NCBI GenBank assembly: GCA_028534125.1
Contig: CM052816.1
Location: 52,454,001-52,518,000, forward strand
Direction of reading: 5' to 3'
DNA: 64,000 nucleotides
From: Lama glama
Lineage: Eukaryota
Shown here one piece after another: positions 8,574 through 40,756 of the stretch (position 1 is its first letter; every line of letters starts with the position of its first letter). The notes beneath the pieces were generated by a model. It did not search any database, was not told the origin of the DNA, and was given only the letters and a program-made list of their open reading frames with translations. Both the position numbers and the translations under genes were made by a program.

Positions 8574-8610
8574 TAGCCCAGGAGGAGGCAGTCAGAAATA
8601 TTCACTGATT

Positions 8611-8766: not shown

Positions 8767-8789
8767 TTCACTGAATGGACAGCTCTGAC

Positions 8790-9310: not shown

Positions 9311-9312
9311 GC

Positions 9313-11411: not shown

Positions 11412-11438
11412 CTGGCCCGCACAGCACTGCGCCGACAT
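11412..11438 (-). CDS. SERINC5: SERINC5 coding exon 1 (MSAQCCAGQ), on the opposite strand to the rest of the gene
   Basis: The reverse complement reads ATG TCG GCG CAG TGC TGT GCG GGC CAG followed by a GTGAGC donor (phase 0). It matches the recalled SERINC5 N-terminus and lies in a CpG island. Confidence 0.93.
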
Positions 11439-11790
11439 CACGACAGCCGACCACCACGAGCGCGTTCGCCTGCTCCCAGCTTCCCTCCGGCCCTCCTGGC
11501 TCCCTCCGGCCTCGAGCGTCCCTCTCCGAACTCACTCACGCCTGCACGCCGCGTAGCCCCAGCTGAGCGCGAGGCACCGCGGCCTGGGTGAAAACAACCG
11601 CGGCCAAACCCCGCCCCGCCGCGGCCCCGCCCCGCCCGCCCCCTCGAGCCGCGCCCGCCCCTTCCCGGGCGCAGCGCCTGGGAGCAGGCTCCTCCTGGGC
11701 TCTCACTTCCGCTGGCGTCAGGCGGCTGGCGGTGGTGGTAACTTCCCGGTGCTGCGCTGGACTGCGAAGTCCGCCCGTCGATGGACTGGA

Positions 11791-11820
11791 CCGGCCCGGC
11801 CCGGCCCGGCCCGGCCCGGC
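11791..11820. repeat. (CCGGC)6 pentanucleotide tandem repeat in the promoter CpG island
   Basis: Directly visible. Confidence 0.95.
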
Positions 11821-12710
11821 AGTGCCGGATTCCTGAGCCGGAGGTCCCAGGCCGAGGAGGGTGCGGCGCCCCTCATCCCCGGCTCTGGCGAAAGAGCTGG
11901 TTACCGACTCCAGTTGAAGCTTGGAGTCATTAGTGAGCTGTTCCGAGTGCCCTGCACTGAACCGGCGCAGTAGGGACCTCCGGGTGCTGGTCTGTGCTCT
12001 GCCTCTCGCCAAACTGTGGTATCCACGGGATCCCTGTTTTCCGAAATCCCTTAATCGCCCTCATTTGCCAAAAAACAAACAAACAAAAAAAAAAAACCTT
12101 AACTTTTGGAAAAATTCCCTCTGCCCACACTTCTTCGAATTCCTGGGCACTTGGGATATTCTGCCAGACATGTTCTGCCTGACGTTACCCCAGCATTTTG
12201 GGAGGTCCCGGGGAAGCCCTTTCTGTGCTTTCCTGGATATTGATCTATTTCCAACCTCTCCTCTCCAACCCTGAGGACGGATTCCGGCCCAAGGACTCAG
12301 TTTGCATTTCTGTTTCCTCTCATCCGACTCCGCTACAAAAGGGTCCCCAATATTTGTTCCATGCGGAAGGCAGAGAGGGCGCCCATAGTTTTTCTCCCTA
12401 CCCAAATCTGCTCTCATCACGGCCACTTCCCCAGTAAGCGGAATTTACGCAAGCGCAGACGTTGCTCCAGATCCTTTTACTCCTTAAAGTAAACATTCCT
12501 GTACATATTTTAGAAATGAGGCATATGAAGCCAAGACATGTTAAATAACTTGCCCAAAGCTTAACAGCAAAGCTGAAGAAGCAATACTGGGACTGACTTT
12601 ACCTTGAGCTTTTGGCAAAACAGTGTCTCTGGGAGCAGTTTAGGAGGTGGACACTAAGAGGAAAGTCACATGGGAACCAGTGCTTGGGTTATGAGCTGCA
12701 CAGAACCTCC

Positions 12711-13167
12711 TATAATCGAGACAGGCTGGCCCCTGGGATCCCTTACCACAGTGCTTGCACGTGGACAAATGGCTCCTTGAGCAACAGGATACAAAGAAAT
12801 CCTAAGTGACTAAAAGTAACTGGAAGCATGCACACACGGGGCAATTTTGAGCAACAGGATACAAAAAGGCCTCAAACTACAAGTGTTTGAAATGCCCTGA
12901 GCAAAAGCAGGGTACTGCACATGGTCCCTGTACACCAAGGGGGTGGAGAGACCACCTAAGAAATTCCTGCCAAACCCACAGATCCACCCTCATTGTTACC
13001 CCACTTAAGGACCCAGACAACTTCCCTTCAAAGCAAGCAAGGATACCTATTTCTCACCTTTGCTCCCTGGTGCTGCAGCTAAGCCCCAATAAAGCCTTGT
13101 CTGAATTCTCACCTTGCCTGTTACCAATTTCTATTGATTAAAGAGTCCAAGGGCCAGGTCGGTAACA
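12711..13167 (+). mobile_element. Solo ERV-type LTR about 1.3 kb upstream of the SERINC5 start codon
   Basis: Imperfect inverted termini (TATAATCGA...TCGGTAACA), an internal direct repeat TTGAGCAACAGGATACAAA present twice, and AATAAA near the 3' end. Confidence 0.7.
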
Positions 13168-14066
13168 AAAATCTCCTAGAATCTCAGGTGCAAGCACTTA
13201 GAGGAAGAGAAATAATGGAGCAGGCCCTACTCAAGCCATGGAAAGTAATGATAGTTGGTGCTAACTAAAATTTTTAAAATAGTAATAAAATAATAATAAA
13301 AAAACCCAGCATAAACAGTGCCAGACCACTGCAGCCACCTGCTTGGTGGCGGCCTGTGACACATCAGAAGCCGAGGATCTCACAAAGACTGTCTAGTGAG
13401 ATTCATTGTTGGCTAGAGTGGTCACTCCGGCCTCACTTCTCGCTGTGGGAGATTACTTGGGTGTCAAGAGTTTTCAACCCGCTGGGAAGAGCCAGGCAGC
13501 TTCTGGGGAAAGGGAAGATGTGAATCCTACACAAGTTTGAGCCAGGTGGGACCATGAGGTCTCCTCATCTTTTAGGGAAATTGAGGCTTAGGAAGATGAG
13601 AACCCTCACCAGGTGCCACTGGGTTACAGGCTGGTAGTAGGATCCATGTCTCCTGAAACCTGTGCTCTTTTTGCCAAATCTTTTTGTCAGTGTGGGAGGA
13701 TTCAGTGACTATATTAACATTAGCCTTGAAAAGAGAGAACATGACTTAATAACCGGAGGATTTGTAGACTTTGCCCACAGTACCCAAAAAGCCTGAGCTT
13801 CTAGAGCCATAAAGTTGTAAATTTTAACTCCACCAAGAACTGGCTGGGTGACCTCTGGGTCTCAGTTTTATCATCTGCAAAACAAGGACTAATGGTGCGT
13901 TAAACTCACTCCTACAGACCATGCAGTACAGGGACTGGCCTTCATAAGCACTGACTAAATAGTTGCCCTGAGGAGTATTAATAAACGGATTAAAAAGATG
14001 TTAAGAAATAATCTATACAGGCTGATTCCTCCTCCCTGCTGGAATAACTCAAAGGAATGTGGGGAT

Positions 14067-14508
14067 TGTCAACTGAAAGAAAAACGCACAACGTAGAAGT
14101 TGTGAACTAAGTTTTATTAGGGGACCTTACTGTGAAGCATATCCCAGGAGACAGCCTCTCAGGGAGCTCTGAGGAACTTCTGCAAAGAGATTAGGGAAGA
14201 GCCAGGATATATATGAAATTTTTACTGGAAAAAAAATGTATTCAAACATAAAAAGATTACTGCTAATCACAAAGAACAGACATCTCAAGTTACTTGTTTT
14301 AAGACTTTTCTGTGAATGGGAAGATGCAAGAATCATGAAATTATTCCTTAGATATGCATCTTAACTATCCAGGGATAAAAAGAAGAATGCTTCCTCTTTT
14401 CTTCCAGCCTGATGTCCCTTCAGGGTGCACTGTCACTGGGCTGCATCAGTGGCTGATGGCTTGTTCCCTGTAGAACTAAAATAGTTGGCAACACTCTTTT
14501 CTTTACAC
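14067..14508 (-). mobile_element. Solo ERV1-type LTR (artiodactyl-type)
   Basis: TG...CA termini (TGTCAACTGAAA...CTTTACA) and TTTATT (minus-strand polyA signal). Resembles recalled artiodactyl ERV1 LTRs. Confidence 0.65.
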
Positions 14509-15059
14509 CAGGTCTGAAGGTTTACTCCTTTCCTGGCTCTGAGGTTACTATTTAAGGTCTGGTAAGTAGCATCCCTTGCATCTGTGGTCATTAACAAGAA
14601 TAGAGTTCATGTCAGCAGACATAACATAAAACAGTGGCACCTTAATTTTATTTTAAGTACTCTGTAGGCCTTTTCAAGAAAGATAGTTGTACAAGGTATT
14701 CCTAACATGTAGGTAATTTTACAGACCATTTCTTTTGATGTGGATTTTTTAGGAACAAGCAGTAACAGACCCGTTTCAAAAAGACTGTAGCTCTTGGCAG
14801 ACCATGTGAAATATTTCCCCCACAAAAATGTTCTTAAATTAACTAAATTCACTCCTTATATACAATTTAATCATACATGTTTATATATATGACATATTAT
14901 AAATAGTCAGCTTATAATTTGCTTTTTTCCCCTCTTGAATTCGAAGATTTTTCTGGTTTTCCCTTTTTAGGAAGGAGAAGCCAATGCTGAGTTTAAAAAC
15001 ACCACTCCCTGAACTGAAAACAATAGTGATATATGTATGTTAGTAAAGAAAAAAGCATA

Positions 15060-15165
15060 GTAGGTAGGTTATAGCTCAGTGGTAGAGCACAAGCTTAGAA
15101 TGCATGAGGTTTTGGGTTCAATCTCCTGTACCTCCATTAAAAATAAATAAATAAATAGAAAAAAA
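15060..15165 (+). mobile_element. tRNA-derived SINE (vic-1-like)
   Basis: TATAGCTCAGTGGTAGAG...GGGTTCAATC...TACCTCC followed by an A-rich tail. Confidence 0.85.
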
Positions 15166-16152
15166 TTAAGTATGTATAAAGAACAAAAGCATAATCACAC
15201 ACTTGCTTTTTTTAGTCTTTGAATTTGGAAAACTTCATTGCAAATTTAATTTCCAGCTCAAGAATGGCTTAAAAACAAAAAATTAATTATTCTAATTCCA
15301 CAAAACTTTCCCAACTTTGGAAAAAAACAGTGATGTGTTCTGTAGGTTTTTAAATATAAAAGAATAAATTTCTCTAGTTGTCACTTACAAAGTCTCTAGG
15401 AACCTCAATCTAGTAGTGAAAGTTCAATTCAATGACAAGTAAACAACAAAGTATTCATTTAGAAACAAAAAACTAAAAATTTGGGGCCCAGGCCAAAAAA
15501 AAAAAAAAACTAACAAAAAAAGAACTGGAGCACTGTAGTGCCCCCCACCTTATAATAATTGCATTCTCATTTATTTCTGTGAAATTAATATATGTACAAT
15601 GTTTTTTAAATGTCACAAGTATTTCAAAACATAAAATGAAAAGTAGCATCTCCTTCTCCACATCCTACCTTTCAGTCCCCTCCCCAGAAACAACCACTTT
15701 CAACTATTTTTGCAGTTTTTCCTTATTACCTCCATATTTTAAAATAATATTCTTATGCCCTAATTTCCTGATCTGTTGACTATATTGTGTATTATCTTTT
15801 ATGTTCCATGTGATCTGAAAGCTTAACCCACTGAGCACTTCCATCTCCTATCTTGCCAATCTAATGATATCACAGTTTTCATAAAATTAATCAACGATTA
15901 TGTAATTGTGGCTAGTAAAAATTATTCATTGCATAGCCACATAGTGTATAATAATAGCATTTCTTTCTTGTCACTTGAATTTTTCAATTGCATCCCCCTT
16001 TCCTGGAGAGGCAGGATATTCTAGTAGTTAGGAGTAGAAACTTTGGAGCCAGACCCTGGGATCAATTTGCTACTTATTAGGTCTGTGATTCTGAAGAAGT
16101 GACTTCATCTCTCTGCACTTCAGTTTCTTCCTCTTTAAATGAGGAAGATTCA

Positions 16153-16340
16153 GGGGGAGGGTATAGTTCAAGTGGTAGAATGCATGCTTACTTAGCATGG
16201 CACAAGGCCCTGGGTTCAATCCCCAGCACCTCTTCTAAAAAAATAAATAAACCTAATAACCTCCTCCCCTCAAATTAAACAAAACAAAATAAAATAAAAT
16301 TTTAAAAATCCAATAATAAATAAAATACTTAAAAAATAAA
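16153..16340 (+). mobile_element. tRNA-derived SINE (vic-1-like) inserted in a MIR remnant
   Basis: GGGGGAGGGTATAGTTCAAGTGGTAGA...GGGTTCAATCCCCAG followed by an A-rich tail. MIR core motif CTTCAGTTTCTTCCTCTTTAAATG immediately upstream. Confidence 0.85.
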
Positions 16341-19300
16341 TCAGAAAAATTCATAAATGTATACACATTAAAGCACTTAAGCAGTACCTAGCATGAACCA
16401 AGTATCTGGTGTTACGTTTGACTCGCTTGATTTTTTCTCCATTTGTCCATCTGATCTGCCAGAATTGATTTTTCCCAGATAATCCACCAAGTCGGACAAT
16501 GTATCAATTTCATTTTTCCCAAGAGCGTTTTCTTTCTCTCAGAGCTCTCCAGATTACTGCAATCTGCAGCCCTCAAGGCTACCACTGCATCACTGCCACC
16601 CTGGCCCACCCCCTTCCTCCTGTCTTCTGTTGAATGTCTGGCTTTCTGGAATCCTCTTTCTTGATTTACTCCCTTGTTTTGGTGAGCACCTCAGCAGCTT
16701 TGGGACTCCAATCCATTGCTTTTAACCCTGTATTGACCTTCCGTGAGCTGCCCAACTTAAAAGTTATTCATCTTCCTTTTTAACACCAATGGTTCCATTG
16801 TACCTTCATCCTACCTTTAATTCCATTACCTCCTGTCTCCTCGATTTCTCTCATCCAGACATTTTCAGTCTTTCCTTTTTATTGAATCATTCTCAAGCTG
16901 CAAACATGGTCAGATTTCTCCCAAATCAAACAACAAACAAAAATCTCATTTTGACTCAACGACCACCCTTTCCTCTTTTTTCTGTCTTAAAGCTTCTAGA
17001 AAACAAAGTTTGGTGCTCCACTCTCCTGAACCCACTCTGCAGCTTCTAAGGTCACTGTTCCCCGCAGCCCCCTGCTCCCCCCCTCCCCAGCCTCCTGCTT
17101 GCTTGGGACAAAAGAAATAACTTCTCCTTAAGATAATTTTCTTTATATCTCTTTATCCAAAGGCAGAAAGAAAATTGAATATAATTCTGCCAATCCCACT
17201 TAGAGGAATTTTTTTTTTAAAGAAATGTGCTTTTATTTTTCCAAATTCAAGTAGTGACAACAAATAAGCTAACACTATGTTGCCTGGTCAGGATTTTTAG
17301 GGGAGATGCTTTGGAGAACCAGAGAAATCTTTTGTAGTTATCCTGTTATCTTGCATGTAGAGAAACCTAATGATTCTTCAGCACTCAAATGGGTGCTTTT
17401 GAAAAGTTTTACCTCAGTATTCGAAAGATTCTCCCCTTAATACACTTCACATTATTAATTTGCTTGCCAAGCCCTTTGGGTATAAATAATACAAAGGAAA
17501 ATACTCCTATATAACACCCCGGGGAACCCAAATTCCAAGTTAATCAAGAGGGCTGAGGGTTGTTCAACAGGTTTTTCAGAATTGCTCAACACTTCTGGGA
17601 GCAAATTAATTTTTTTTAAGTCCTCTTGGGTTAAGGGCATAGTCTTCATATCAATGGAAATTATATATATATATATATTTATATTTTCTTATTTTATATA
17701 TATATTCTTATTATATAATATGTACATATTCTTCACCCTCATCTCTGAGATGTATCATGTACACTCAGATTTTGAGTTAATCTTTCTGTTAAGAAAACTC
17801 AGTGGGAATGTTTAGATAGGCTTGGCTGTTCTAATTTAATTAAAATATGTAGTAGCCTTTAAGTAGATCTTTGAAAGTTTCCAATTACTTCTCACAGAAA
17901 TAAATATTTGGGCAAATCAGGCAAATAATCAGTACAGTCATTATTCAACTTCATTATGAACTTTAAGAAAATATTTCTGAAAACAACTCATTTATGTTCT
18001 TCTGGATACTAAGGAAAATTAGTCTTACTTCTTTGGTTTTAAAACTCAATCCAAAAAACTCCCTGAAACACATTGAGAAAAGGCTTGAGGTTGGGCTGGG
18101 AGGGTAGGGGGCAGGGGGACAAAAAAGAGAGCAGGGGTCCTCTTCAGTTTTCCTGGTTGGTCAGTTCTAATTAATTTCCTGAGAGGATGAACAAGAGGTG
18201 AGCCCATTTCTTCAAACAAGAGCACTTTGTGTCGTCTTACCTTTTTTATGCGTATTTCAAGAGACTACTCCTGCTGGTTTGTTTTAAATTCACTTTACAT
18301 GATACATCCTTTGAAGTAAGCGCTCTTTGGAGGTGATCGGTGTTAAAAGACCCACAGTCAGTTAACTGCCTGTGAAACCATAGTTTCATGAAAATCAATA
18401 AAAGGCTTTCATTGGGGGTTTCACTTGAAAGGTGTTTACATTGTTCTATGAAGACTGGAAAAGTGGAAGGAGCTTTCTGAGGTTTCACAGAAAGACAATC
18501 CAACTTATTTATTCATAATAGGATTTCAGCAAGGGAAGAGCATTTTAGATTCAACAGTAGAACTTTCAATGGCTGAGAAAGATCATAAGAAAAATTTCAA
18601 AGACCATTTCATTTTTGTTTCTCTCTTTAACACAAAAGGAAGTGGGATACACACACAAGGAAGTTAATAAGTCTGAAATCAAATGAAAAGTTAAACAAAA
18701 ACAGCTGCTTTAAGGGAAAAAAAAAAGGCTGCATTTATTGAACTGTCATCAACAATAATTTTCGATACTTTTCTGTGTCTTTTCCATGCTGATTCTAGCA
18801 GGTTGAAAGCAAGATTAAACACTCTTTTCCCTCTGTTTTACTTAAAAACAGTGGGCTTCTATTCCATAACTGGACTACATTCTCCTGAAGAAGCAAATGG
18901 AGTCGGAGGCACATTTGTTTCTGACCCACCCCTCAAAGTAGGAAACCCAAAATGGGGGCGTGTGACTTGAGCCACAGGAAACTGAGGCAAGGAACAAGCA
19001 CCAAAATTTTCTGCTGGGACGTAAGACCAATTAGTGGAAAATGCAGAGTTAAGGCCACATGATAGACTTGAGGGTGAAGGGGTAGAGACAAAGGAAGGAG
19101 GAAACAGAAGACGAACCATTTAGCAGAGAAAAGTCTCGACTAAAATCTCCCCCAAGGAAAGCCTTAGACACCAATTTGTGAAAGGCCTGTGCTGTAGGTC
19201 GTCAGTCTCCCGAGGTACTTTCTAGCCCCTGAAAGGTTAATGGTGATGACTTCACACCCTCCTCCTGAGCTAAGCTCCTGAGATTTCCCTTTGAGAAGTA

Positions 19301-22300
19301 CTAGATTTCCTGCTGCTGTTATTTTTACATTCCTTTGGAACACAGAGGCTTTTGGAAGAGTAGGAGACAGAGTAGAATGTTATAGTTTCTACCCTAAGAA
19401 TAAGTGTGAGGTTCAGCGCTTGGGAGGAAGAAACACCAGTAGATGTAAAGCCTTGTTGGGTTTTTGGTCTTTAAGAATGTCAAGTGCTGACTCTACGTGT
19501 ATATCCACTGCAACCAGATTCGGAGTGGCGAACAACCTGGGCCCTGGTCAATAGGTGATGTCTGTCTCCATCATCCCTCAGGCCCTGCTCCGTGGGAGTC
19601 CCCTAGAGAACAGTACCTTAACCTAATTCCAGTTCTCTAACTCTGGGAGTCAGTTACTCAGGAAGTGCTTGAGGGCAAACAGGTCTTGGAACAGCTGTTA
19701 GTTCAGATGGGATCAAAATATTAGAATATGAACTCCTGGGTTTCGATTTTACCGTAGTTGACACTGGGGCTCCTGGATTTCAGGGAAGAGCCTGAGCCAA
19801 GAACTACCAGCTCTTATGTGATGGGAGCTGAGGGCAAAAGGGCCCCATCATGTCCCATTGATTTCCAAACTTAAATATCTTGTCTTATTTCAGCTTTTTT
19901 GTCCAAATCAGGACAAGGGGTCATAAGGGCACCTTAGGATGAGGACAGCTCATACAGTGAAGCTTGTCTTATATTTTTGTACCAGCAAATAATTCTAAAA
20001 TAAAGAAGAAGAGGTTTGGGGTTCAGAATGGCAGATTTAGTGACTGCATTCATCTCTCTTTCTCAATATCTACCTTTAACTTTTTCTGCAAGCTCAGTTT
20101 TATTAGATGCCACATATAAATGAGATCACACAGAATTTGTCTTTTTCTGTCAGATTTATTTCATAAAAATGTAAATAGTAATTGTTTTGTAGAATATAGT
20201 TTTTTACAGAAAATTTTGTTATTTTTGCTAACAAGCAATGGGTTTATTATTTTTAAAAGTAAATTACATAAATATTTAAAATTCTCCTATTTTAATTATT
20301 GATAAAGTAAATAGCTAGAACCCAAATAAATAAATGCTATTTGATGTCCTCCACAGTCTTTAAGAGTGCAAAAGGGTCCTGAATTTGAGAACTGTTCTTG
20401 CAGAGCATGGTCTTCAATTTGGGTGCAATACTCGAGGTGTACACAAGGTACATAGTTCAAAGAGTCTATTTCCAGATCCCTAACATCCACCTGTGCTCTG
20501 TTCTAGCTTCATACAATCCTCCTTTCCTACCTCCCCCTTCACAAGTGACAGTGTTGCCATAGTTGTCTTTGCCTGACACCTTCTGGTCAAAACAAAAAAT
20601 GCCAGCCTCAAAACCCAAAGAATAGATGTCAACAACTTAAAAGAAAACCCTGTGACCAGAGAGGAATCGTTTTTTAGGAAATGCTGCTTTACCAATGCTC
20701 CTGATGCTCCTGAGACCTGTCGTATGGGACAAAAAGGACATTGACTCTGAGTGGAACAGCCACCCTGACATGGTTATTTATTTTACAAGATTAAAAAAAA
20801 ACTATTATCAATAATTTTTAAAGTTCTTTCAATTAGTATAATATTTCAATTTTATATCACTAATAATTGTAACCTGTAAGATTTAAAGCCTTATGGTCAC
20901 AAGAAATTAAACAAAAAGAAGATTTCAACTTATATACATATTTTTTCATTGCAAATAATTATCAGAGTTGATATAAAAAACTTTCAAGCATAAATATATG
21001 CTACATTAGGATAAAATTTGGAGATGGGACCTGTATTGGAAATACAAATTCAAGAAGGAGGAGTGAGATAGAATTTCCTATTGCCAAAGGGAAGCTTGTC
21101 TGTGTATTTTTAATATGAATGGTTGTGCATATCAGAATCACTATAGCATTTAGATTCTATTCAATATATTTGAAAGAATGATTAACAGTTAAATCTGTGT
21201 CAATATTTTAATATGCAGGAGTTATATCCTATGTACCTACGTGAAACGTGATGAGAAATTTTAGTTGTCAAATTAGAAATGTGTGAGGAAGTACATACTT
21301 TAAAAAACTTTTACGTGGAGTATACTAGTAAAACGATGGAGAACTGCTAATGTAGAGCACTGACAGACACACAGGTGCTCACAGGATTCAACCTAGTGAT
21401 AGGGAAATAAGGTGTAGATCTGGACCAGTTGGAATTCAGTGGGATTGGAAGATGGGGTTACGTGTATTTTATCTTTTACTTTTTGCTGAGACTGGAATAG
21501 AGTCCTCAAGTCGGCAGTTCATCCTAGATGAAAGAACTCCTTAACGTGTCCCACCCTGGTTCAGACCAGCACTGTGGCTTTAAGTCCAGGGCTCTGTGAG
21601 TGGGAACAGGGGAGGCCCAGCTTGCTCAAGGACAAGGCACTGATTTGCAGTTACTATGAAACTCCTTTGAGGGCCACAGAAAGGCAGGTTAGGACAGATG
21701 AGAAGAGGAACTGAGGAAGGCAGAAGGCTGGGTTTAGGTTGAATTCAGGTCTGTTTAAAATAAAAGCTCTGACAAGCACATCCAGGAAAAGGATCATTCA
21801 AGAAATATTTAAACTATATTGGACCTCTCTCCTAAACACACACACAAACACATACCTTTTTTTTCTCCTTTTTGAGTAACTCAACTCAAAACTCCCCCCA
21901 CTTCTAGCCCACGAAATGCCCCATATTACTTTGGAATGAAGATGAAAATAATTCATTTCATCCCCTCCACATTCCATAAGTAATTACAGCAGTTTTTCTT
22001 TTTTACGGCAGCTATTGTAGCTGAAGCTTAGAGGATCCCAGGGCTGGGATCTTCCTTGGCTGATGTGAAAATTCTGTTTCCGTGGCCCCCCTTTCCATGC
22101 CTCATTCACCTCTTACACCACGGAGGCAGACTGCTAGTTGTCTGCTCCAATACCTTTCTCCCTTTCTGAGAACTCTCAAACCAGACAAGGTCAGCATCAG
22201 AAAAGAACATTAAAAATCAGTCTCATTTATGAACATACCTGGAAAAGTCCTGAATGAAACACAAGCATCACTTGAACTTACATTCCATGGGCCGGAACAA

Positions 22301-22859
22301 CAGTCAAAAGACTACATCTAGTTGCCAAGAAGACTGGAAAATATACTCTTTACTCCAGGCAGCCTTGTGCCCAAATAATCATTGGTTTTAAATTCTCAAG
22401 ACAGTCACTTCCCCCTCTCTCCACTCAGCAACAAGATCAAGATAAGCAATTTTCTTACTGGCCCCTTCTGTGATGTGCCTTCATTTCTACTTTATCCTTA
22501 CACAAAGGGCCTAGCATTTTGCAGACCCAGCTTTATAGAGAAGTCTTCTAGTAGACTCTGAGATGGGTTTTGTCACCTATCCTCCTGTATTAGACTCAAC
22601 TGTCAAAACTGAAGTTTAAGTTTATGAGGATTTGGGGATGCCGCAAGGGAAGACTATGGTCTGTTGCTTCTAAATTCCTACTTTCCTTTCTCTTTTGATA
22701 TTTGTTTGACCATCTCAGTAATACAGTTATATAATTTTAAAAATATTTACTCCAGCAGTCATAGTTGTTTTACTGGGAAGTTCATCCAGGGTATCCAGAC
22801 ACCATCCTGCCCAAGTACAAGTTCACGCTGATATTTTTAGAGGTTTGTTTAATAAAACT

Positions 22860-23345
22860 TCAAAGGAAAGCTGATATTCATCTTATACAAGTTATTTAAG
22901 AGAACAGAAAAGAAGGAAAGTTACACACAACTTATTTTACAAGACTTGTTTATTCGTGACACCAAAGCCAGACAAAGTCAGCACAGAAAGAGAAATTTAA
23001 AAATCACTCTCACTTAGAAACACATGGAATTACCACTGGAATTTTCAGTTAAATGAGCCCATAAACTCTCTTTTGTGCTTAAAACATTGTTTATAAACAT
23101 AGATGGAAAAGTCCTAAATAAAACATAAGCAAATCCAGTCCAATAGTGTATTTTAAAAGAAAATTATTCCAAAATAATTCAAGGATGATTCAATGTTAGA
23201 AAATCTATCAGTGTAATTCACCAGATTAACAGATTTAAGGAGAAAACCACGTGATCCTTTCAGCTCATGCAGAAATCACAATTGATAAATGTCAACCCTT
23301 ATTCTTGACAGACTATAAGAATTAGAAGGAAACTTCCTTAACTGA
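22860..23345 (+). mobile_element. Old L1 ORF2 (reverse transcriptase region) fragment
   Basis: Motifs CCAAAGCCAGACAAAG, CAAGGATGATTCAATGTTAGAAAATCTATCAGTGTAATTCACC and AGAAGGAAACTTCCTTAAC. Confidence 0.75.
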
Positions 23346-24499
23346 TGCACTCTACCTAAGACCCTCAACACTCATTTGCACTGTGGTCAAAATCTGCACA
23401 ATTAGAAGCTAGAAGTGGCCCTGCCTTTGATATGAAAGAAACACCAGGAAAGTGTCAGGCTGCTTGTCCAGGTCTAGGTGGTATGACATATATATTCCTC
23501 CCAAGGAAGCAATTTCTCCCAAGTCACATCATCCCAGAAGAGCAGGGAGCCTTTTCCCAGGTTTCTCACTGTTCCTTCAGTCTGGTCACTAACCATCACC
23601 ACTGGACAGCCAAAGATTGGCAAATGTAAGAGCAGCCCTCATGATCATCTAGTTCAATTCACTGATCTTACAGTGACACCTCACAGGTCCAGAGTAAAAT
23701 GCCCAAAGTAAAATGTCAGTGGTCACCTGGCTCAGCTAAAATGGCATACCTGGAACTGGGACGTAGGCCTTGTGACACTCAGTCCCATGCTCTTTAACTT
23801 GCCTCTTAAGAGCAAAAACAAATTTTTCTTACTTTCTTATGCAGCTTAACTCTCTCCTTTAAATATTTTGGGCCCCTATGGACACTCATGTGTGATTTAC
23901 CTTCTAGCTCAAGTAGCAATAGTGTCAGGGACTGAAGGAAGGGTGGATGGCAGATGGGATTAAATGAACTGGGGACATTCCCAGGAGGAAAGCAATGCCT
24001 ACCTTTAGGATCATTCTAGCATAGAGAGTTAGCGAAGCCCGAGTGGGCTCTGGAGAAGGAGATCCCACCACAGGGGGCAAGAGGGACAGCCCACTGTGCC
24101 CACTGTGCCTGACTGTGCGGGTGTAGATGGCACCAGTCCCACCATACCCACTGTGGATTTGTGCATTCATTACCGCCATCTTCAGGCAGATGGCAGGACA
24201 GTATTCTGGAAATTGTGTCTGCTTCCAGTTCTTACATAGGTGCCACTGGGCTACCTGTACTGCTGAGGAAAGGGTCCGACTGTAGCAGGGCTAGAATAAG
24301 ATCTGGAGATGGACCAGCCTTGCCTGATTCTGGAATTGATATCTGGGTGCCAGGGAAGATGCTGTATAGCAGGAAGTCCTGAGGGGCCAATGGATCCTGA
24401 GCTCCAGCTCTTCCTGGACTTTTCTTTTCAATCACCTCTGCCAGGAATCAGCTGGACACCCACTGTCTGTTCTGCATCCAGGCTTCTATCTCTGGTGCC

Positions 24500-25861
24500 T
24501 GCTGGCCTCAGCCTTCTCTCTTCTCTGCCACATCACCGCCCCCAACTGCAGTCTCCACAGCCCGATTTTCACTAAGTGTCTTTGGAATCTATAAGCATAA
24601 CTGCCTTACTAGGAAGTAATTACTTTGGCATTTTCCAGGGGGAATGCTTCTGTCCATGAAGAAAAAAAGATATGACATGACTGGCAGCATGCTGTGCAGA
24701 AATTTAAAAGCTTCTTGGGGGAAAAAAGAAATTCTTAAAGAGTTGTCAGATTATAAACAGATCAAAGCTACAAAGAAGTTTTTGGAGGAATCCAAGATAC
24801 AAATAAGAATAAGAATCTCTTCGAAAAAATGGTCTTAAAGATGTAATCAAAGTGCTTGAAGGAACAAATCAAATGCCAGTGGTAAATCCACTTGTTATTT
24901 TAGGCCCCAAGAACAGGAATGTAAAGAACCAGGAGAAAGTATTAGATTGCAAGAACTCAGTGGAAATGTTACTAGTTTTTACAAGGACTTTAGCAAACTT
25001 TGAGTTGAAAAGAGCCTTTAATGAAGTTAATTTTAGTAAAGAGACAAAACCTGGATTCCCAAGAGTTAAAAAAGAATATCCTGGACTTAGGAAATTTGGA
25101 CACTTACATCTGGAAGCAGAAAACTGAAATGAGCTCAGTGATCTAATAAAACATACTCAGAAATTTCCAAAAGACAGAGCAAGTGCTTTTGCTCACACAC
25201 ACACACACACACACAAAGAAATTCAGGTTTTGAGTAATGACATTGTGCAGCTGAAAGCTGGCAGGTGACCAAGCTAAGAAGTTAAAAAAGATGATAGATG
25301 GCTCAAAAAAGGAATCTTTGTTAACAATAGTTGAAAAAGACAAAGGCCATTTCCAATCTAAACTAAATGCTGAGTTGCTAGCTCGGCAAGGGCTGGAAAA
25401 CAGAAAAGTTGGAACACAAAACTTGCTCACTTATTTAAGCCAAAGTGCTACTGGAAAATGTACACAAACCTTTGCATCAGAAAGCTGATATTCTTAATAA
25501 ACTCTTGGACAGAAAGGCAGTATTTTTCCAAAGAAGCTGTTTCAGGAAGAATAAGAATAAGAAGAGAAGAGCAGAAATACCAGCTGAGAGTCAGTGAAAT
25601 TTCATTAGTGGAAAATTCAAGAAGTGGAAAATGAAGTACAGAAAACAAAGATCTTGTGAAACCCAGATTTCCCTTCATGATAAGAAAGGTCACGACAGCT
25701 GGCTGACTGCACGTACTGCAGAAGGAGGTCTAGCGAGAAAAGGCAAGTTGCCAGCCCAAGACAGATGTTCTCAAAGGAGAATAATTTTTCAAAGCCAGCG
25801 AATGTCCAGCCAACTTCAGGAAGACCATAACAACAGAAACTTTCAAAGGGAAATTCACTAA
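24500..25861 (+). pseudogene. SPZ1: SPZ1-like (spermatogenic leucine zipper 1) single-exon pseudogene
   Basis: Colinear peptide blocks resemble recalled human SPZ1: PDFH*VSLESISITALLGS, AVQKFKSFL, KEILKELSDYKQIKATKKFLEESKI, NQEKVLDCKNSVEMLLVFTRTLAN, LEAEN*NELSDLIKHTQKFPKD, DQAKKL and KQRSCETQISLHDKK. In-frame stops at 24573 and 25125, plus several frame changes. Position is syntenic, divergent from SERINC5 exon 1. Confidence 0.82.
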
Positions 25862-26344
25862 TCCAAGATCAGTCTTCTGGTCCCCCTTCTGAAACCAGTG
25901 AAAGCCTCTATTTTATTGATACTGCACCCACCTGGAATTTCTTATGCTTGTCTTAATGGATAGATCTGTTAAAGTGAACCTGTGTCTGTCAGTGGTCCTA
26001 CCGCTGATCCTAGGAGGCCATTTCAGGTATCTGAAATAGAATCTTTTTATTATCTGCATCTTGGTATAGCTTCATCAGTAAATCTTACCAGGGAAACTCG
26101 CCAAGATCTCACATGTATTCATTCATTCCACAAACATTTATTAAATGTCTTTCATGAGCCAGGGATTTTATAAATGTTAGAAATACAGCAGAGAACAAGA
26201 CAAAAATCTTGTCCTTGCAGTGCTTACATTCTAACACAGAAAACAGGTGGTTAATAAAGAAATTGATAATATAATGCCAGACAGGGATACAAGCTATAAG
26301 GGACAACTAAGCAGAGTGAAGGTGTGAGTATGTGTCGAGATTTA

Positions 26345-26850
26345 TTGGTTTTTTGGCATATGAATGTCCAATTTGTCCAGCACCATTTGTTGAATTGCCT
26401 TTGTGTCTTTGAAAAAAGTCAGTTGACTATAATTGTGTGGGTTTATGTCTGAGCTTTCCATTTTGTTCCATTGATCTATCCTTTCACCAATACCACACTG
26501 TTCTGATCCATATATCTATAGAGTAAGTCTTGATATCAGGTCATGTGAGTCTTCCCACTTTTTGTTTTTCAAGAAAAAGAAAAATTCCTTTTCTGCCTAT
26601 TCTGGATTCCTTGAATTTTTGTGTGGATTTTAAGATCAGCTTATTGATTTCTGCAAAAGAGTCAGCTGGGATTTTGATAGAAATTGTCGAGTCTGTAGAT
26701 CAATTTGGGGAGTATTGCTATCTTAACAGTATCAAGTCTTCAAATCCATAAACATGAGTTGCTTTTTCACTGATTTAGTTATTTAATTTCTTTCAACAAT
26801 ACTTTGTAGTTTGCAGAGTGTAAGTTTTGCATTTTTTTGATTCAATTTTT
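26345..26850 (-). mobile_element. L1 ORF2 fragment, antisense
   Basis: Motifs CCAGCACCATTTGTTGAA, TTGTTCCATTGATCTAT and CTGTAGATCAATTTGGGGAG. Confidence 0.8.
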
Positions 26851-26864
26851 CCCTCCATACAGCC

Positions 26865-27000
26865 ACTCTCGTTATTTATAGCAGTTGTGTCCTATAAAGT
26901 TGCTGCAAATATTGAATTAGCCAATACTGAAATCCTGCTTCTAAGGGAAACGTGGACAAGGTTAGATTCTTGCGAGTCTCTGGTCATAGTTATGTTAGTC
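26865..27000. mobile_element. MER47/Tigger5-like DNA transposon fragment
   Basis: TGAATTAGCCAATACTGAA...GGTTAGATTCTTGCGAGTCTCTGGTCA resembles recalled MER47. Confidence 0.5.
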
Positions 27001-27374
27001 AAAATGCCATTTGCGTGTATAGGTTTGTTTGCCAGTGTCCTTGTAAAACAAGCCAATCTCAGCAGCTTTGAAAACCTGCTCTTCCACATAACCTTTTTCC
27101 TATATAACACTGAGGAGAAATTTTAAAATTCTTCCATAGCCAACCCTCCAGCCCAGGCAAGTGAGGTTAAGGCTTATACTCTAATTCCAGCCCTCATCAT
27201 AACCAGCTGTAACTTTGGGGAAGTCAAGTAGAATCCCCACTCTCAAACTCTAAAAAAAATTAGGCCGTGGATGAGAATATCCCCACAGTTCCACTCATTC
27301 TAGAGTTCCATAATTAAAAAAAAAAAAAAAAAGTCAGGGGGAGGGTGTGGTTGTTTAGAAATTTTAAAAGCCCA

Positions 27375-27393
27375 CAGCACCACCTGGTGGTCA
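27375..27393 (-). promoter_or_regulatory. Candidate CTCF motif (TGACCACCAGGTGGTGCTG)
   Basis: Close match to the CTCF core CCACCAGGTGGCGC. Motif only; no binding evidence. Confidence 0.45.
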
Positions 27394-27657
27394 AAGGGGA
27401 GAGGATGGCTGAGGAGAAGGGTTAATACACATGTCCAGCCACATCTGTATTTTGCTTGTTTGAATAAAATTTCACATTTCAGACAATTTCTCCTCTAAAA
27501 TGGCTACATGCAAGTGTGCTACTACCTATAAAAGCAATCCTACAGGTCATTATGTTTAAAATCACACCATGCATAGCATGCCTTGTAAATATAAAGACTC
27601 TAACCCTTGAATAGCCATCATTACTCAGCTATTACACTTTGGTTAAAAAACATTAGT

Positions 27658-27670
27658 AACAACAACAACA

Positions 27671-27719
<49 letters not shown>

Positions 27720-27720
27720 T
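27658..27720. repeat. (AAC)n(TAC)n compound trinucleotide microsatellite
   Basis: Directly visible. Confidence 0.97.
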
Positions 27721-27914
27721 CGAGCAAGTAGAACAATTACACAAAATAAAAATATACTTCATTATACCAAAAATTTCATCCTACTAAATTATTCACTTGT
27801 ATTTGAGTAAGAAAGTGATCATATTCAATTATAATCATCCCAAATGAAATAAATATCTGAGTCCATACTTATATAAACACATAGGTAAATGAATGAATGG
27901 ATAAAATTGTTAAG

Positions 27915-28234
27915 GAAAATGTCCAACAAGCGCATGAAAAGATGCTTGACGTGACTACTTGTTAGAGAAATGCAAATCAAGACTACAATGAGGTATCACC
28001 TCACACCAGTCAGAATGACCATCATTAAGTCCACAAATGATAAATGCTGGAGAAGGTGTGGAGAAAATGGAACCCTCCTACACTGCTGGTGGGAATGTAA
28101 ATTGGTGCAGCCACTGTGGAAGACAGTATGGAGGTTCCTGAAAAAACTAAAAATAAACTTACCATATGATCCAGCAATCCCACTCCTGAGCATATATCTG
28201 GAGGAAAATATAATACAAAAAGACACATGCACCC
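27915..28234 (+). mobile_element. Relatively young L1 ORF2 C-terminal segment running into the gap
   Basis: Translates to [16 protein letters not shown]...[32 protein letters not shown], the L1 ORF2 Cys-rich domain. Confidence 0.95.
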
Positions 28235-28734
28235 NNNNNNNNNNNNNNNNNNNNNNNNNNNNNNNNNNNNNNNNNNNNNNNNNNNNNNNNNNNNNNNNNN
28301 NNNNNNNNNNNNNNNNNNNNNNNNNNNNNNNNNNNNNNNNNNNNNNNNNNNNNNNNNNNNNNNNNNNNNNNNNNNNNNNNNNNNNNNNNNNNNNNNNNNN
28401 NNNNNNNNNNNNNNNNNNNNNNNNNNNNNNNNNNNNNNNNNNNNNNNNNNNNNNNNNNNNNNNNNNNNNNNNNNNNNNNNNNNNNNNNNNNNNNNNNNNN
28501 NNNNNNNNNNNNNNNNNNNNNNNNNNNNNNNNNNNNNNNNNNNNNNNNNNNNNNNNNNNNNNNNNNNNNNNNNNNNNNNNNNNNNNNNNNNNNNNNNNNN
28601 NNNNNNNNNNNNNNNNNNNNNNNNNNNNNNNNNNNNNNNNNNNNNNNNNNNNNNNNNNNNNNNNNNNNNNNNNNNNNNNNNNNNNNNNNNNNNNNNNNNN
28701 NNNNNNNNNNNNNNNNNNNNNNNNNNNNNNNNNN
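28235..28734. other. Assembly gap (500 N); probable orientation breakpoint
   Basis: Run of exactly 500 N, with an L1 ORF2 segment on its left. SERINC5 orientation differs between the two sides. Confidence 0.99.
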
Positions 28735-33630: not shown

Positions 33631-33829
33631 TGTAATTTACATTTTCTTGGGTAAGAAGAATATAATTATATATTGCTTGTATAACTGTAAGTAAATACAT
33701 TTTGGAATGATCCTTGGACTCTTCTGTTTGCAGTTAGATTTCTTGCAAGTGGAGGTAAAAGGCCTGCTGGGTTCACTTCCTGCCCCATACCCAGCCCCCC
33801 TGACTGTCTCCTCTCCTCGCCTGCCTACA

Positions 33830-34578: not shown

Positions 34579-35040
34579 GTTGCCTCAAAACCATCCTCTG
34601 TACCCAGAAAACAGATTGAGGCTCGGAGGCAGAGTTTGGGGAAGGGTAGAAAAGAACAGCTTCATTGCTTTGCCAGACGAAGGGGAGTCATGGCAGACTC
34701 GTGCCTTAGAGACTGTGAGTCTGTCTTGGGGTTGAGGTCTTGAGGTTTATAGAAAGACTGGAAGGAACAGAAAAGGTGACCACAATCAGGGCCTTCTACA
34801 GGGCACTGCTACATTCCTCTGAACCTCGATGACTCGTGGAGGGTCTGTCTGCTCTTCTGAGATTATTGGCCCATTACCTCCTTCCTGGTTAAAGCTGTTG
34901 GATGTAAGGGGAAAGTTTGGCGGGGGGGGTTGGTGTTTAGCACAAAAGCAGTAAGAGAGAGAAAGCAAACTGCAGGATTTCTTAGAAGGAATCAGCAGTT
35001 CCAGCCTCAGGGAAGGTAGTTCGAGTCCTGCTCCTTCCAT
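34579..35040 (-). mobile_element. Probable solo ERV LTR
   Basis: Begins TGTTGCC and resembles recalled artiodactyl ERV LTRs in reverse orientation. Boundaries approximate. Confidence 0.5.
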
Positions 35041-36272
35041 CCCTGTTGCCTTCTGTGGAACAGCCCTTCAAACCATCATTAGTCAGTTCTCTGACAGAAT
35101 CTCAGATTGAAAGGTTATTACTTAAAGTTTGATTGGAGTTGTTTTCTAACTGTCTAATCATATTTGTGGCGGTTTGATCCTGATGAAATGCTCGTGGTGG
35201 AGGAGGAGCTGTGAGCACTAGTGTCCGAGATTCTGAGGAGTTACTATTTGGGGACATTTAGTTCCTGATTGCAGAGGTGGCGGGGTCAAATAAAACCAGG
35301 CTCGGTGGAATTTTTGTTCTCCTTAAGGCTTTTTAATAATGACACAATACAGACTTTTCTCTTAAAAATCCTTAGAAACTTGGACAAAAGGAAAGTGAAT
35401 ACTGATTGATACTGTTTTTTAAAATAGCCCCCACATCCCAAAAAGGGCCTCAAAGGTTACAATTGACTGAAAATGAGCCTTGGTTGCCTGGAGACTGATT
35501 CTAGGGTAGGATGGAACTGATTTTAGCTTTCCTTCTCCATTTCTCAGCTCCTGTCCATTGGTGGGTAACATAGACATCCCTGCCGTGGACACTGGAATTA
35601 TTCCACAGAGGAAAATAATTGTCTTAGAAAGCTTGAAAATAATTGGAATATTAGAAAAGGGAGAGGCTCTCAATTCTGAAACTGGAATTTGTTTCAAGTA
35701 AGAGGTATTAAACAGAACCTGCAGATCTGATTCTTCTAGTTTGATATTACTCATGCTGAGCTGCCCAAAGCTTTCTTGGCGGCTGGGTTTCATTCAGTGC
35801 CCTCAAAATTTGATGCAATGAAATGTAAGATTCATTATCTTTGCTAATATGCCATTTTCTCATTTCTCCCAAATAATGCTTTAATAATATAGGGGCACAA
35901 CTCTCCTTTTCCTCTTCTGCATTTATTTCTGTAAGAACCACGCCCGAAAGTCTGTACTTTATTTCTAAGTTTACAGCATCTGGGCCCCAGGCCATCTAGA
36001 CCTGTTGACTTTTCTGTAACTCTTCTGTTGTTTCTTTACATTTATTTGCCTGGGAATGAAATTATTTTGGTGGGTGGTATAGCTAGCATCTCTCTTTTAT
36101 AGGGAAAATTATATGGATTTTCTAGCTTCCACCTCTTTGAGCTTAATACTGGTGTTGATATTTTGAAATGTCTTCCCTGGTTTGGAAGTTCAGATGTATT
36201 TTCTTTCAGGTGGTGACTAGGTCTCTGAAAGACAGGTACTGGGTACTGTTTTTTTAGAACTCAGTTCTTAAA

Positions 36273-36741
36273 CAGGCATACCTGGTTTTATTGCACTTTG
36301 CAGATACTACATTTTTTACAAATTGAAGGTTTGTGATAACCCTGCACTGACCAAGTCTATCCGTACCATTTTCTGAACAGTATTTGCTTACTTCATGTCT
36401 CTTTCACATTTTGGTAATTCTTTCAATATTTCACCCTTTTTCATTCATACTGTATTTGTTATGTCATTTGTGATCAATGATCTTTGATGTCATTAACATG
36501 ACTCACTGAAGGCTCAGATGATGGTTAGAATTTTTGAGCAATACAGTATTTTTAAATTAAGGTATTTACAGTGTTTTCTACCCATAATGCTGATGCACAC
36601 TTAATAGACTGCAGTATAGTGTGAACATAAGTTTTATGTGCACTGGGAAACCAAAAAATTGGTGTGACTTGCTATACTGTTATACTTGCTTTATTGTGGT
36701 GATCTGGAACCAAACCTGCGATATCTCTGAAGTCTGCCTAT
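36273..36741. mobile_element. Tigger1 internal-deletion derivative with both ends
   Basis: Terminal inverted repeats CAGGCATACCT... and ...GAAGTCTGCCTA. Tigger1 motifs TTTTACAAATTGAAGGTTTGTG and ACTGAAGGCTCAGATGAT are joined directly. Confidence 0.85.
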
Positions 36742-36787
36742 ATGAATGTGCCAGGCAAGGATTCACCTTATTGAAAGTTACCTGGTA

Positions 36788-37094
36788 CAGTTGTCCCTTA
36801 GTATCCATGGGAGAGTGGTTCCAGGACCCTCTCAGATACCAAAATCCACCAGCGCTCAATTCCCATATATAAAATGGTGTTGTGTATAATTTACACACCT
36901 ACTCTTACATGCTTTAAATCTTCTCTAGATTACTTATACCTAATACAGTATAAATGCTATGTAAATACTTGCTGGTGCCTGGCAAGTTCAGGTTTCACTT
37001 TTTGGAACTAAATGAAAAAAATTTTTTAAATATTTTCCATCTGTGGTTGGTTAAATCTGGGAATGTGAAACTGGCAGATATGGAGGTCTGACTG
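36788..37094. mobile_element. MER2 (Tc1/mariner-Tigger type) element
   Basis: TA|CAGTTGTCCCT...GTATCCATGGG...GGTTCCAGGACCC...GATATGGAGG...ACTG|TA, with TA target-site duplication. Confidence 0.88.
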
Positions 37095-37309
37095 TATCTT
37101 TCAATATGAATCCTTTGGTAAAGTGAATAGAGCATCTACTGAATTCTAAGATGTTCATCTCTCCCCATGTTTAAACCAGAATGTATCAACCAGTCAAGGG
37201 TTCATGAAATGTGCCTGGCTTCTCCCCCAAGAGTTCTTTTTATAAACTAGATAGTACCTTAGAACTAAGGAAGCTTAATGGCTACTTTGGATTTAGGAGC
37301 TCTGATGAG

Positions 37310-37470
37310 CACTTTGTACAAGGAGTAACTGATGTAATTCTCAGGACAACTTCATGAGGTGGAAGGCAGTATTATTTCGTTGTACAGGTAGGGAAATCGA
37401 GGCTCAGAAAGGGTGTGTAATTTGCCCGAGTTGTCGGTGGAGTTAAGGTTGGAAGTCCAGTGAGCTGTTT
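37310..37470 (-). mobile_element. MIR
   Basis: TACAGGTAGGGAAATCGAGGCTCAGAAAGG...AATTTGCCC, the MIR core. Confidence 0.65.
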
Positions 37471-40400
37471 CTTCCTCCTGATAACTTGTGGCTTTGAGTT
37501 TGGTTGCGTGAGGAATGGGAGGAAACCCCTTGCCCTCAGGTCTGTACAGAACCAACAAGGATGCCGTGTCCTTGGATGCCCAGAGCCAGACTTCGAGGCA
37601 ACACCCTTAGCAAGCCCGTCCCCTTCACCCCACAGTGTGGAATCTGTGTGTGATGTCTGTTTTCTTTTTCCAAAGCTGGGATGGAGCTTGGAACAGCAAA
37701 TATTTAATCAGAGCAAATTCCCCTTGCTAAATCCTGCCAGCTTGTTCAACTCAGAGGCTCTTTGCCTAAAAATATTCACCACTTACTGAAGGTTTTAAAT
37801 GAGTAAGTCACCCACAGAGCATAAAGCAGCTCTTAGTATTTGAAGCAGGAGTTTGCCTACTTTTATTTTGACTTAAAGATGCAATGCCACCTACTCACCT
37901 TTCCATGAGCCTAAGGGCCTCTGGCAGTAGACGGGTTGGAGGGGATTTGTGGGGGTGTCGGGGGAGGGGTGCAGGCCTGCTGGCATCAGCATTCTTCCTG
38001 AGCTGGATTTGAGAAGAAGGCAGGGAGAGAAGTGGGTGTGGGGTAGGGAGGCAGAGAAGAGTCTGACCTTGAAAGATGGGCCAGTGTAGATGAAAAGGTG
38101 CTGATGTACGTGTGTTATAGTAGGGTGTTGGGGACGTTGGGGGCAATGTGCATTGTGAATTAGCTTTGCTGATAGAATGGAAGAGAGAAGAGAGGGAAGA
38201 AGAGAGTTGAATGAGTTTTATAGAGCAATAAACCCCAGGTGAACAGAACAGAGTAAGTGAGGTGGCCTGGTGCCTCCATGAATATGGCTTGGACAGTAAA
38301 GCAATATTACCTCCTTGTTTCTGGTACCACTCATACAGGTGCAGCTTTTGTTTCCCACTAGAGGCTCTGAAATGTTCACTTTGTGTGGGGTCCCTCGTTA
38401 CTTCAGTATATGAAGATTTTAACCATGTGAGTTTGTTCACTCACTGTGAAATACAGCGAAAAATTCAGACTCCTTCAGAAAGAAAGCCCTTGCTGGCTTC
38501 TCTCATTACCTGTGGCGCGGGGGTGGGGGGAGGGCGCTTCCTGTATCCTGTATCCTAATTGCTGTTCTGAAGCAATTTCCAGACCAGACATTCTCACTGG
38601 GATGCTCCGGTGCTTCCAGTCCTGTATGTTAAAAACAAGCTCCTGATCTGTTCTTTCACTTCCACCCTTTGTCCTCTGCTAGCTCTACTCCCCCTCCACC
38701 CCAAACAGCTTTTTTTAAAAGCAGTTAAGTGCAGAAGAGAACAATCCCCGCCTCCGCAGTCCTTCACTTTCTCATCGTCCCTGCAGTCCTACCAATTATG
38801 ATCTCTACCCACAGAATTTCTGTTTTTCTCTGCCACTGCTTTACCTTCTTCATCTATAATGTGGACTAATAATCCAGTAGCCTTCTAATTTATCCTTCTG
38901 CCTCAAACCTGTCCCCTTTCTGGTATGGCCTCCACTTCGCAGCCAGAGGCATTCCAACTTAAAGAGTGGTTTCCCCTTGCTTACAGGATAGGAGCCAGAC
39001 TTTAGCATGCCATACATCTGGCCCTTCCCAACAAGACCCTGCCTTCTTTTAAGCTTCATCTCTTGCCAAGGAATACTTTTTTAGCAAAAGTATGTCCCAT
39101 GCAATATTAGTGTAAGTATGTCCCAACCATTGTATGGGACATAGTTATATTAAAAAATTAGTTATTATTTATACAAAATTAAACTTTAACAAGACACTCT
39201 GTGCTTTATCTGGATTGGTATTTTATCTAGCTTGGTCAAAAAGATAGCAGTATGTCTCTTTATGCAACTACATCTTGATCTGATGTGAAAAAATGGCAGT
39301 TGCACAAACTTGCTGAGTACAAAATGTATGGTGTTTCTTTATGAAATCTTTTATACCTGTTCTTGAAAATGGAGATGTTGTAATACAGTCTCAGTATTAA
39401 TGCATTTTTGCCTGAGACACTAATTTGGAAAAACGTGTTTGAGATTCAGGTGCAGTAATCATTGCGGATCTTTTCTGAGGGAAGGAAATCCTCATCGAGG
39501 AAGATGAACTCCAATTAAATTTAGTCTTCTATGTATGGAAATCTTAACCTCAGTTATTATTGTTTCTTCAGAATCTTTTCTGGAGAAGAAACTAAATGCT
39601 TCAATTTTAACTCTAGCTTTGTGTCATTTTTCTCTAAGTGTTTTTTGTTTTTGTCTTGTAAATAATGGCTATAATACGATTTTAAACTTATTTTCTGTTC
39701 TGAAGAGTGTTCAACTTTGATACTGATAAGCAGCAAGTTTTATTTTTTTAACCACTGACTAAATCTTTATTTTTCTGACATTAATAGAAATGTGCTGTTT
39801 ATTCTCATTCTGTAAGATTTTAATTATTCTGATGATGTAAATAGGTTTTGCATTGAAACCTTCTAATTGGACTAGAATAAACCATTATCAACATTTATCA
39901 GAAAATTAAGATGCATAAATAAAGAGATCCAGTGGATCAAAAAAAAAATCCAATTAACAACCAGTTTACAGAGAAAAATAAAATGGCTGTAACTTTAAGA
40001 AAAGTTATGGACCTTACTAGTAGTTAGGAAGATGGGCATTGAAACAAGATAGGTTTTTTTTATCTTTAAATCTTGGGTGGTTCAGATTGGAAATGTGAGC
40101 TGTCTCAGATGTTACTGGTGGGATATAAACACAGCCTTTAAGAGTATAATTTAACTTTATCTCTTGAAATTTTAAAATGTAGATACTACTTTGACCCATT
40201 GATTTCATTGCTAAGGTCAGGAGTTTTTCGTATATAAATAATAGCATATGTGCAACTATTCTATATATTTATGCATTTCAAGAAAAGTATACTTGTGTAT
40301 TATAAGTATACTTTTAAAAAATTCTGATGCTGGATTTCAGAATTCATTAGGGGTAAGTGAAAGTGGAGTGTGGTATATTATGAGCACTGCATCTTTTAAA

Positions 40401-40577
40401 AAGATTCAGAAAAAATTAAGAGAAAGGTCTTTGGAAGGGAGACTTTTTTCTCAGTCTTTGTTGGCCTCTGCATGTGGTGTATTTCTCATTGGGTTTTGAC
40501 TTGTGGGCTGAAAGAACACTCCATGGCAGCCACTCTTTATCCAGTTTTAACAGATGACTTTGTCTCTTTTTCCTCAG

Positions 40578-40756
40578 ATCCCTTTCTTCGAAGACATTTG
40601 TAAAGGCATTAAAGCTGGCGACACCTGTGAGAAGCTGGTGGGGTATTCGGCAGTGTATAGAGTCTGTTTTGGGATGGCCTGTTTCTTCTTTCTCTTCTGC
40701 CTCCTGACCTTAAAAGTCAACAACAGTAAAAGTTGTAGGGCCTACATTCACAACGG
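40578..40756 (+). CDS. SERINC5: SERINC5 exon 3 (IPFFEDICKGIKAGDTCEKLVGYSAVYRVCFGMACFFFLFCLLTLKVNNSKSCRAYIHNG)
   Basis: Acceptor ttttcctcag, donor gtaagt, 179 nt. Clear SERINC5 peptide. Confidence 0.97.

Follow-up and report, generated by a model that had tools for sequence, protein, structure and literature searches.

True polymorphic inversions between inverted repeats arise by non-allelic recombination, and their breakpoints often lie in repeats and assembly gaps. Chromosome-scale assemblies built with Hi-C data contain a second kind of inverted block, the locally misoriented contig. 3D-DNA uses 500 N as gap filler (PMC8466942), and inversions between Hi-C-scaffolded whale assemblies are reported to account for 1.0 to 5.3% of length, to peak near 20 kb in size, and to be concentrated in small contigs (PMC10659057). 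We analyzed a llama locus that resembles both. In the window (C1:52454001-52518000, 64,000 nucleotides in all, from an assembly of 2.35 Gb in 1,072,352 contigs), SERINC5, described as restricting nef-defective HIV-1 (PMC8316019), appears split across opposite strands. As in misorientation of the 3D-DNA type, fixed 500-N gaps lie at both edges of the inverted block (compare PMC8466942), the block measures tens of kb, within the size range where PMC10659057 places the concentration of such inversions, and its position is right while its strand is wrong; we saw no difference in kind. Like true polymorphic inversions, the block is bounded by assembly gaps and a repeat, but here the repeat is present at only one junction, and the assembly graph crosses that junction colinearly. 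We conclude that two contigs with exons 1 and 2, together forming a block of 55.7 kb, were almost certainly set backwards in the scaffold, and that SERINC5 itself is in all likelihood an intact, colinear gene.

Contig layout at the SERINC5 locus

The contig layout was read from the window and 200 kb on each side, a region that contains four 500-N gaps (Table 1). As the earlier note had described, exon 1 points left (11438-11412, minus strand) and exons 3 to 11 point right (40578-63046, plus strand). The note had also named a misoriented contig block as the most likely cause. The piece with exon 1 does belong to such a block, but the extent had to be corrected: the block comprises contigs B and C (C1:52426543 to 52482234) and also contains exon 2. 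Because it starts outside the window, the gap at 8074 lies within the block rather than at its left edge; the edges are the 500-N gaps at C1:52426043-542 and 52482235-734. The part of contig B that lies left of the window includes exon 2, followed by the initial 2.5 kb of intron 2. Contigs B and C are mutually consistent, with exon 1 followed by exon 2, both on the minus strand and 36.2 kb apart, and turning the two round together yields upstream DNA, exon 1, exon 2, and exons 3 to 12 in order. Comparison of the 1.5-kb ends of the five placed contigs revealed no direct end-to-end overlap or similarity, and these ends contain no inverted homologous repeats at the two breakpoints; at the 8074 gap, the ends of B and C have no exact overlap.

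Table 1. Features of the SERINC5 region (window positions, unless prefixed by C1)
Feature	Position	Strand	Description
Contig A	ends C1:52426042		upstream neighbor of block
Contig B	C1:52426543-52462073		35.5 kb, carries exon 2, almost certainly misoriented
Contig C	C1:52462574-52482234		19.7 kb, carries exon 1, almost certainly misoriented
Contig D	C1:52482735-52683330		200.6 kb, exons 3-12, orientation correct
Right part of contig B	1..8073	-	SERINC5 intron 1
Gap	8074..8573		exactly 500 N, in intron 1, inside flipped block
Contig C	8574..28234	-	first 2.8 kb of intron 1, exon 1, CpG island, 16.7 kb of upstream DNA
CpG island	11001-12000		GC 0.70, 102 CpG, CpG o/e 0.84; exon 1 at edge
SERINC5 coding exon 1	11438-11412	-	27 nt, ATG to GT donor
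Decayed SPZ1-like fragment	24834..25223	+	tblastn 36% over 143 aa, one stop
Truncated L1-type repeat, 5' piece	27915..28234	+	start approximate, by eye
Gap	28235..28734		exactly 500 N, false join of contigs C and D
Start of contig D	28735..40577	+	distal 11.8 kb of intron 2
SERINC5 exon 2	C1:52429214-52429047	-	168 nt, 25 kb left of window
SERINC5 exon 3	40578-40756	+	179 nt, AG/GT ends
SERINC5 exon 4	41227-41309	+	83 nt, AG/GT ends
SERINC5 exon 5	42762-42855	+	94 nt, AG/GT ends
SERINC5 exon 6	48118-48329	+	212 nt, AG/GT ends
SERINC5 exon 7	50441-50536	+	96 nt, AG/GT ends
SERINC5 exon 8	52825-52945	+	121 nt, AG/GT ends
SERINC5 exon 9	58945-59011	+	67 nt, AG/GT ends
SERINC5 exon 10	62194-62233	+	40 nt, AG/GT ends
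SERINC5 exon 11	62902-63046	+	145 nt, AG/GT ends
SERINC5 exon 12	C1:52519117-52519264	+	148 nt, 1.1 kb past window

The junction between contig A and reversed contig C

The last 199 bases of contig A match two tiny unplaced contigs exactly, and two exact-matching unplaced contigs were likewise found for each of the first 199 bases of B, the first 199 bases of D, and the last 199 bases of C. The unplaced contigs seem to be the edges of a graph assembled from 200-mers, with the members of a pair representing alleles. Such contig output is presumably typical of DISCOVAR/w2rap-type assemblers, and the type of assembly pipeline is suggested by the 500-N gap size together with the 199-base overlaps. 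Walking the edges gave an unbroken path from A into the reverse of C (A+, L042-, L066-, L076+, L080-, L081-, L096-, C-) through exact overlaps of 199, 199, 199, 199, 185, 109, and 199 bases, so that contig A runs via unplaced contigs into window base 28234 read backwards, across a true gap of 539 bp. This path bears out, at one of the two junctions, the earlier note's preferred explanation of a misoriented contig block.

Both ends of the path were also explored for branches, using overlaps of at least 100 bases. The end of C has two 199-base successors, alleles that lie 2 bases apart, and all of the small contigs reached from it (13 of 13) lead to A. From the end of A, which also has two successors, 13 of the 14 small contigs reached lead to the reverse of C; the remaining one, L078, is a tip of 276 bp with a single-base homopolymer difference, and it follows the same path. 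Since both graph successors of C lead to A and no path leads from C to D, the gap at 28235 is a false join. Among all 58 small contigs fetched, no path supports either displayed junction (A to B in its displayed orientation, or C to D), and no contig is common to the walks that start at A, B, and D. Both displayed junctions would have to exist in a real inversion, and the joining of the ends of A and C to each other removes both on the alleles found. It is this exact-overlap path, rather than the intact exons or strand asymmetry described below, that carries the argument for misorientation.

The weakest overlap in the path is the one of 109 bases, which lies within an L1. Each of 12 paralogous copies (12 of 12) shares at most 16 to 48 exact bases with the two bridging contigs, and the 109-base match is thus locus specific among the copies seen. 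The two overlaps shorter than 199 bases (185 and 109) reflect a walk in which not all intermediate edges were fetched, and the three L1 searches scored the best 40 of 2732, 3348, and 6810 candidates, respectively, so that a rare branch could be missed. One unplaced contig, C537035, was considered as an alternative branch, being 97% identical to the bridge over 144 bases. It was rejected because it belongs to a different locus: its 8.5 kb resemble the region solely through repeats at the ends of the contig.

An L1 segment had been noted in front of the gap of exactly 500 N at 28235-28734, and we recovered the same arrangement: bases 28000 to 28234 match a high-copy repeat, with other loci 89 to 91% identical among the best 40 of 6810 candidates scored, which we take to be the 3' part of an L1. 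The remainder of the element sits in unplaced contigs and finishes at contig A, so that the L1 runs without a break from 28234 through these contigs into A on both alleles found. The L1 beside the 28235 gap is one element across the true junction of A and reversed C and is no inversion breakpoint. A test of whether an older repeat at the end of A continues past the L1 in reversed C, against seven paralogous copies, gave one weak 72-base hit, which overlaps the A-end match. The continuity of the L1 bears on a fixed or homozygous L1-mediated inversion that would part exons 1 and 2 from exons 3 to 12 and knock out SERINC5. Such an event would explain the exons on opposite strands in the scaffold and the L1 piece abutting the gap, and the earlier note had raised an L1-associated natural knockout as a possible reading. 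It is contradicted by the path from A to reversed C and by the continuation of a single L1 into A on both alleles; in the sequence walked, the other junction showed no inverted partner; and all 12 exons and their splice sites are intact, although this last point would not exclude a very recent event. We regard a fixed inversion as vanishingly improbable; a real L1-associated inversion that yields a knockout is not supported.

The bubbles at the contig ends are dense, with 17 mismatches in 1200 bp, 5 mismatches and an 8-base indel in 1.2 kb, and 5 mismatches in 329 bp. Heterozygous sites at this density may have fragmented the graph of a diploid short-read assembly into bubbles on either side of the block, and the bubble contigs would then have remained unplaced. 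A Hi-C scaffolder, which would order long pieces but orient short ones poorly, could have put the block in the right place and the wrong orientation with fixed 500-N spacers. The error can be demonstrated without reads because the bubble contigs were retained in the assembly as unplaced sequences. Walking tiny unplaced contigs through 199-base overlaps is a reusable check, in which a suspect junction is tested on the individual's own sequence.

The intron 2 side of the block

With the block turned round, the left end of contig B would join contig D across more than 3.3 kb of intron 2. The walk from the left end of B covered 3,134 bp via 38 small contigs and that from the left end of D about 200 bp via 6 small contigs; the two did not meet, and no conflict arose. 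When 8 contigs of the B and D walks were compared with the placed 464 kb, matches were found only at end overlaps, and 6 contigs of the B walk tested for repeats contained none.

Two further explanations turn on this side of the block. The first is a real heterozygous 56-kb inversion, with the scaffold representing the inverted haplotype and one SERINC5 allele cut in intron 2; if true, the animal would carry a naturally occurring null allele of a gene that restricts retroviruses. In favor of this, heterozygosity at the locus is high, the walks from B and D did not meet, and, since the L1 searches scored the best 40 candidates, junction contigs may have been missed. However, a heterozygous inversion needs branches from C to D and from A to B, whereas the four contig ends have exactly two 199-base neighbors each, and those at the ends of A and C all lead into the colinear path. 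Moreover, as far as the eight walk contigs compared show, the 3.1 kb before the left end of B has no L1 partner and no match in the placed sequence beyond the end overlap. On balance, this explanation is very unlikely. The second keeps the block misoriented and adds a real large insertion or rearrangement in intron 2 between B and D, as might be suggested by a walk from B that is still short of D after 3.1 kb. That walk, however, advanced 0.2 to 1.2 kb per step and was still extending, and L119, the one walked contig checked for strand composition, has the T>A and G>C bias seen elsewhere in intron 2, making an added rearrangement exceedingly unlikely. A misoriented block in an otherwise ordinary locus remains our reading, and the opposite-strand split of SERINC5 is, with near certainty, a product of scaffolding and not a real feature.

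Strand composition was also read in the placed contigs. On the plus strand, window positions 28735 to 40577 have T>A and G>C; positions 1 to 8073 have A>T and C>G, the reverse of what is seen elsewhere in the gene. The asymmetry fits a single transcription unit and does not separate an artifact from a recent inversion.

SERINC5 coding sequence and flanking genes

Joined in the corrected order, the 12 exons form 1380 nt, or 459 codons and a stop, with no frameshifts and no internal stops, and GT-AG boundaries in all 11 introns (11 of 11). The absence of decay that the earlier note observed in exons 3 to 11 extends to the whole open frame. Decay of the separated exons, which would be expected if the break were old, was not found, a result that does not address a very recent event. 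The CpG island next to exon 1 is likely the SERINC5 promoter. Searching the genome with the Serinc profile gave an exon 2 match at C1:52429038-52429211 on the minus strand, and the Serinc domain (PF03348) is present, with seven exon-sized Pfam matches at the locus; the other Serinc loci of the genome sit on other chromosomes. An exon 6 query retrieved 87 proteins, for which all informative names were SERINC5 or SERC5 and the remainder were unnamed or hypothetical. By sequence similarity, the gene is closest to SERINC5 and not to other SERINC paralogs. Of 24 public run entries listed for the 3' end of the gene, 20 contain part of it, which does not bear on the junctions.

We compared the predicted protein with 10 orthologs chosen from 129 proteins fetched. 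Nine of the 10 align end to end at 85 to 93% identity, and one isoform aligns from residue 38. The closest named proteins among the matches listed were those of pig, grey whale, and hippopotamus (92 to 93%), and neither the 87 hits nor the 45 listed cluster rows (three clusters, with 15 members shown per cluster) included a camelid protein. Like mammalian SERINC5 (Pfam PF03348, Serinc), the llama gene has 12 coding exons. Its 459-aa product is 92.8% identical end to end to the 461-aa pig protein (XP_013850400.1), with the same first nine residues. Relative to the 461-aa orthologs, the llama protein has a 2-residue gap; cattle and deer SERINC5 are also 459 aa long, but their gaps are placed differently.

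Taken together, SERINC5 here is most likely an ordinary, intact copy whose apparent break is an assembly error, and the split probably has no biological meaning. A gene model derived from the scaffold would nevertheless be expected to lack exons 1 and 2 and the promoter, and the scaffold could cause false calls of gene loss or inversion in comparative studies of restriction factors. Our searches found no publication combining SERINC5, inversion, and camel, and no title on SERINC5 loss among the matches listed for SERINC5, pseudogene, and gene loss; absence from print is not implied in either case.

The flanking genes provide a further view of the order. Contig A contains FYVE-domain and SPZ1-like ORFs on the minus strand and an ankyrin ORF on the plus strand, and contig D contains a thrombospondin-type exon or ORF (minus); we take these to be ZFYVE16, SPZ1, ANKRD34B, and THBS4. 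Their strands and the human order, which we assume to be ZFYVE16-SPZ1-SERINC5-THBS4 with the corresponding strands, fit exons 3 to 12 and place A with D, leaving B and C as the odd piece. Pfam matched two of the four flanking proteins; neither the SPZ1-like ORF nor the thrombospondin exon was assigned to a family.

The SPZ1-like ORF in contig A is uninterrupted over 428 codons from stop to stop. Contig C carries a decayed fragment, presumably also of SPZ1, that is 36% identical to this ORF in protein and 66% identical at the DNA level over 290 nt. Flipping the block would make the two same-strand neighbors separated by about 5.9 kb, which favors an old tandem duplicate rather than gene loss.

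SPZ1-like pair

Contig A, upstream of SERINC5, carries an SPZ1-like ORF for which no Pfam match was found. Once the contig order is corrected (A, reversed C, reversed B, D), the decayed copy in contig C would become its neighbor, ~5.9 kb away on the same strand. The ORF in contig A is uninterrupted, and this arrangement suggests that the decayed copy stems from an ancient tandem duplication, as opposed to SPZ1 having been lost.

Features in the llama assembly GCA_028534125.1 (G000; C1, CM052816.1; L, fetched sequences)
Feature	Location	Strand	Details
SPZ1-like ORF, uninterrupted	L017:8412-9695 (C1:52422412-52423695)	minus	contig A
Decayed SPZ1-like copy	window 24834-25223		36% aa, 66% nt identity to contig A ORF
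L1 3'-end copy	L127:8160-8303 (G000:C537035)		
Trinucleotide microsatellite	window 27660-27720		~20 units; within contig C, 500 bp from its right end
Lone Serinc match	G000:C28:6939394-6939570		E = 5.8e-6
Allelic contig pairs, SERINC5 intron 2	L119/L120, L074/L075, L093/L094		unplaced

Repeats and an isolated Serinc match

The AT-rich 3' end of the L1 bridging contigs A and C is 97% identical to a copy at the end of an unrelated, unplaced 8.5-kb contig, compared to 80-83% for the other scored copies; this copy is possibly a related insertion or a 3' transduction. L081, a bridging contig, contains a dinucleotide repeat. A profile search of the genome revealed a lone Serinc match and no further Serinc exons on that chromosome (C28), possibly reflecting a retrocopy fragment.

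Unplaced contigs and allelic divergence

The assembly comprises >1 million contigs, many of them 200- to 1,200-bp allelic pairs with a 199-base overlap to placed contigs, and walking these overlaps could check further suspected inversions in this genome. Alleles in the intron 2 contigs differ at ~1.4% of sites (17/1,200 over 1.2 kb), which is high by mammalian standards and may reflect divergent haplotypes or admixture.
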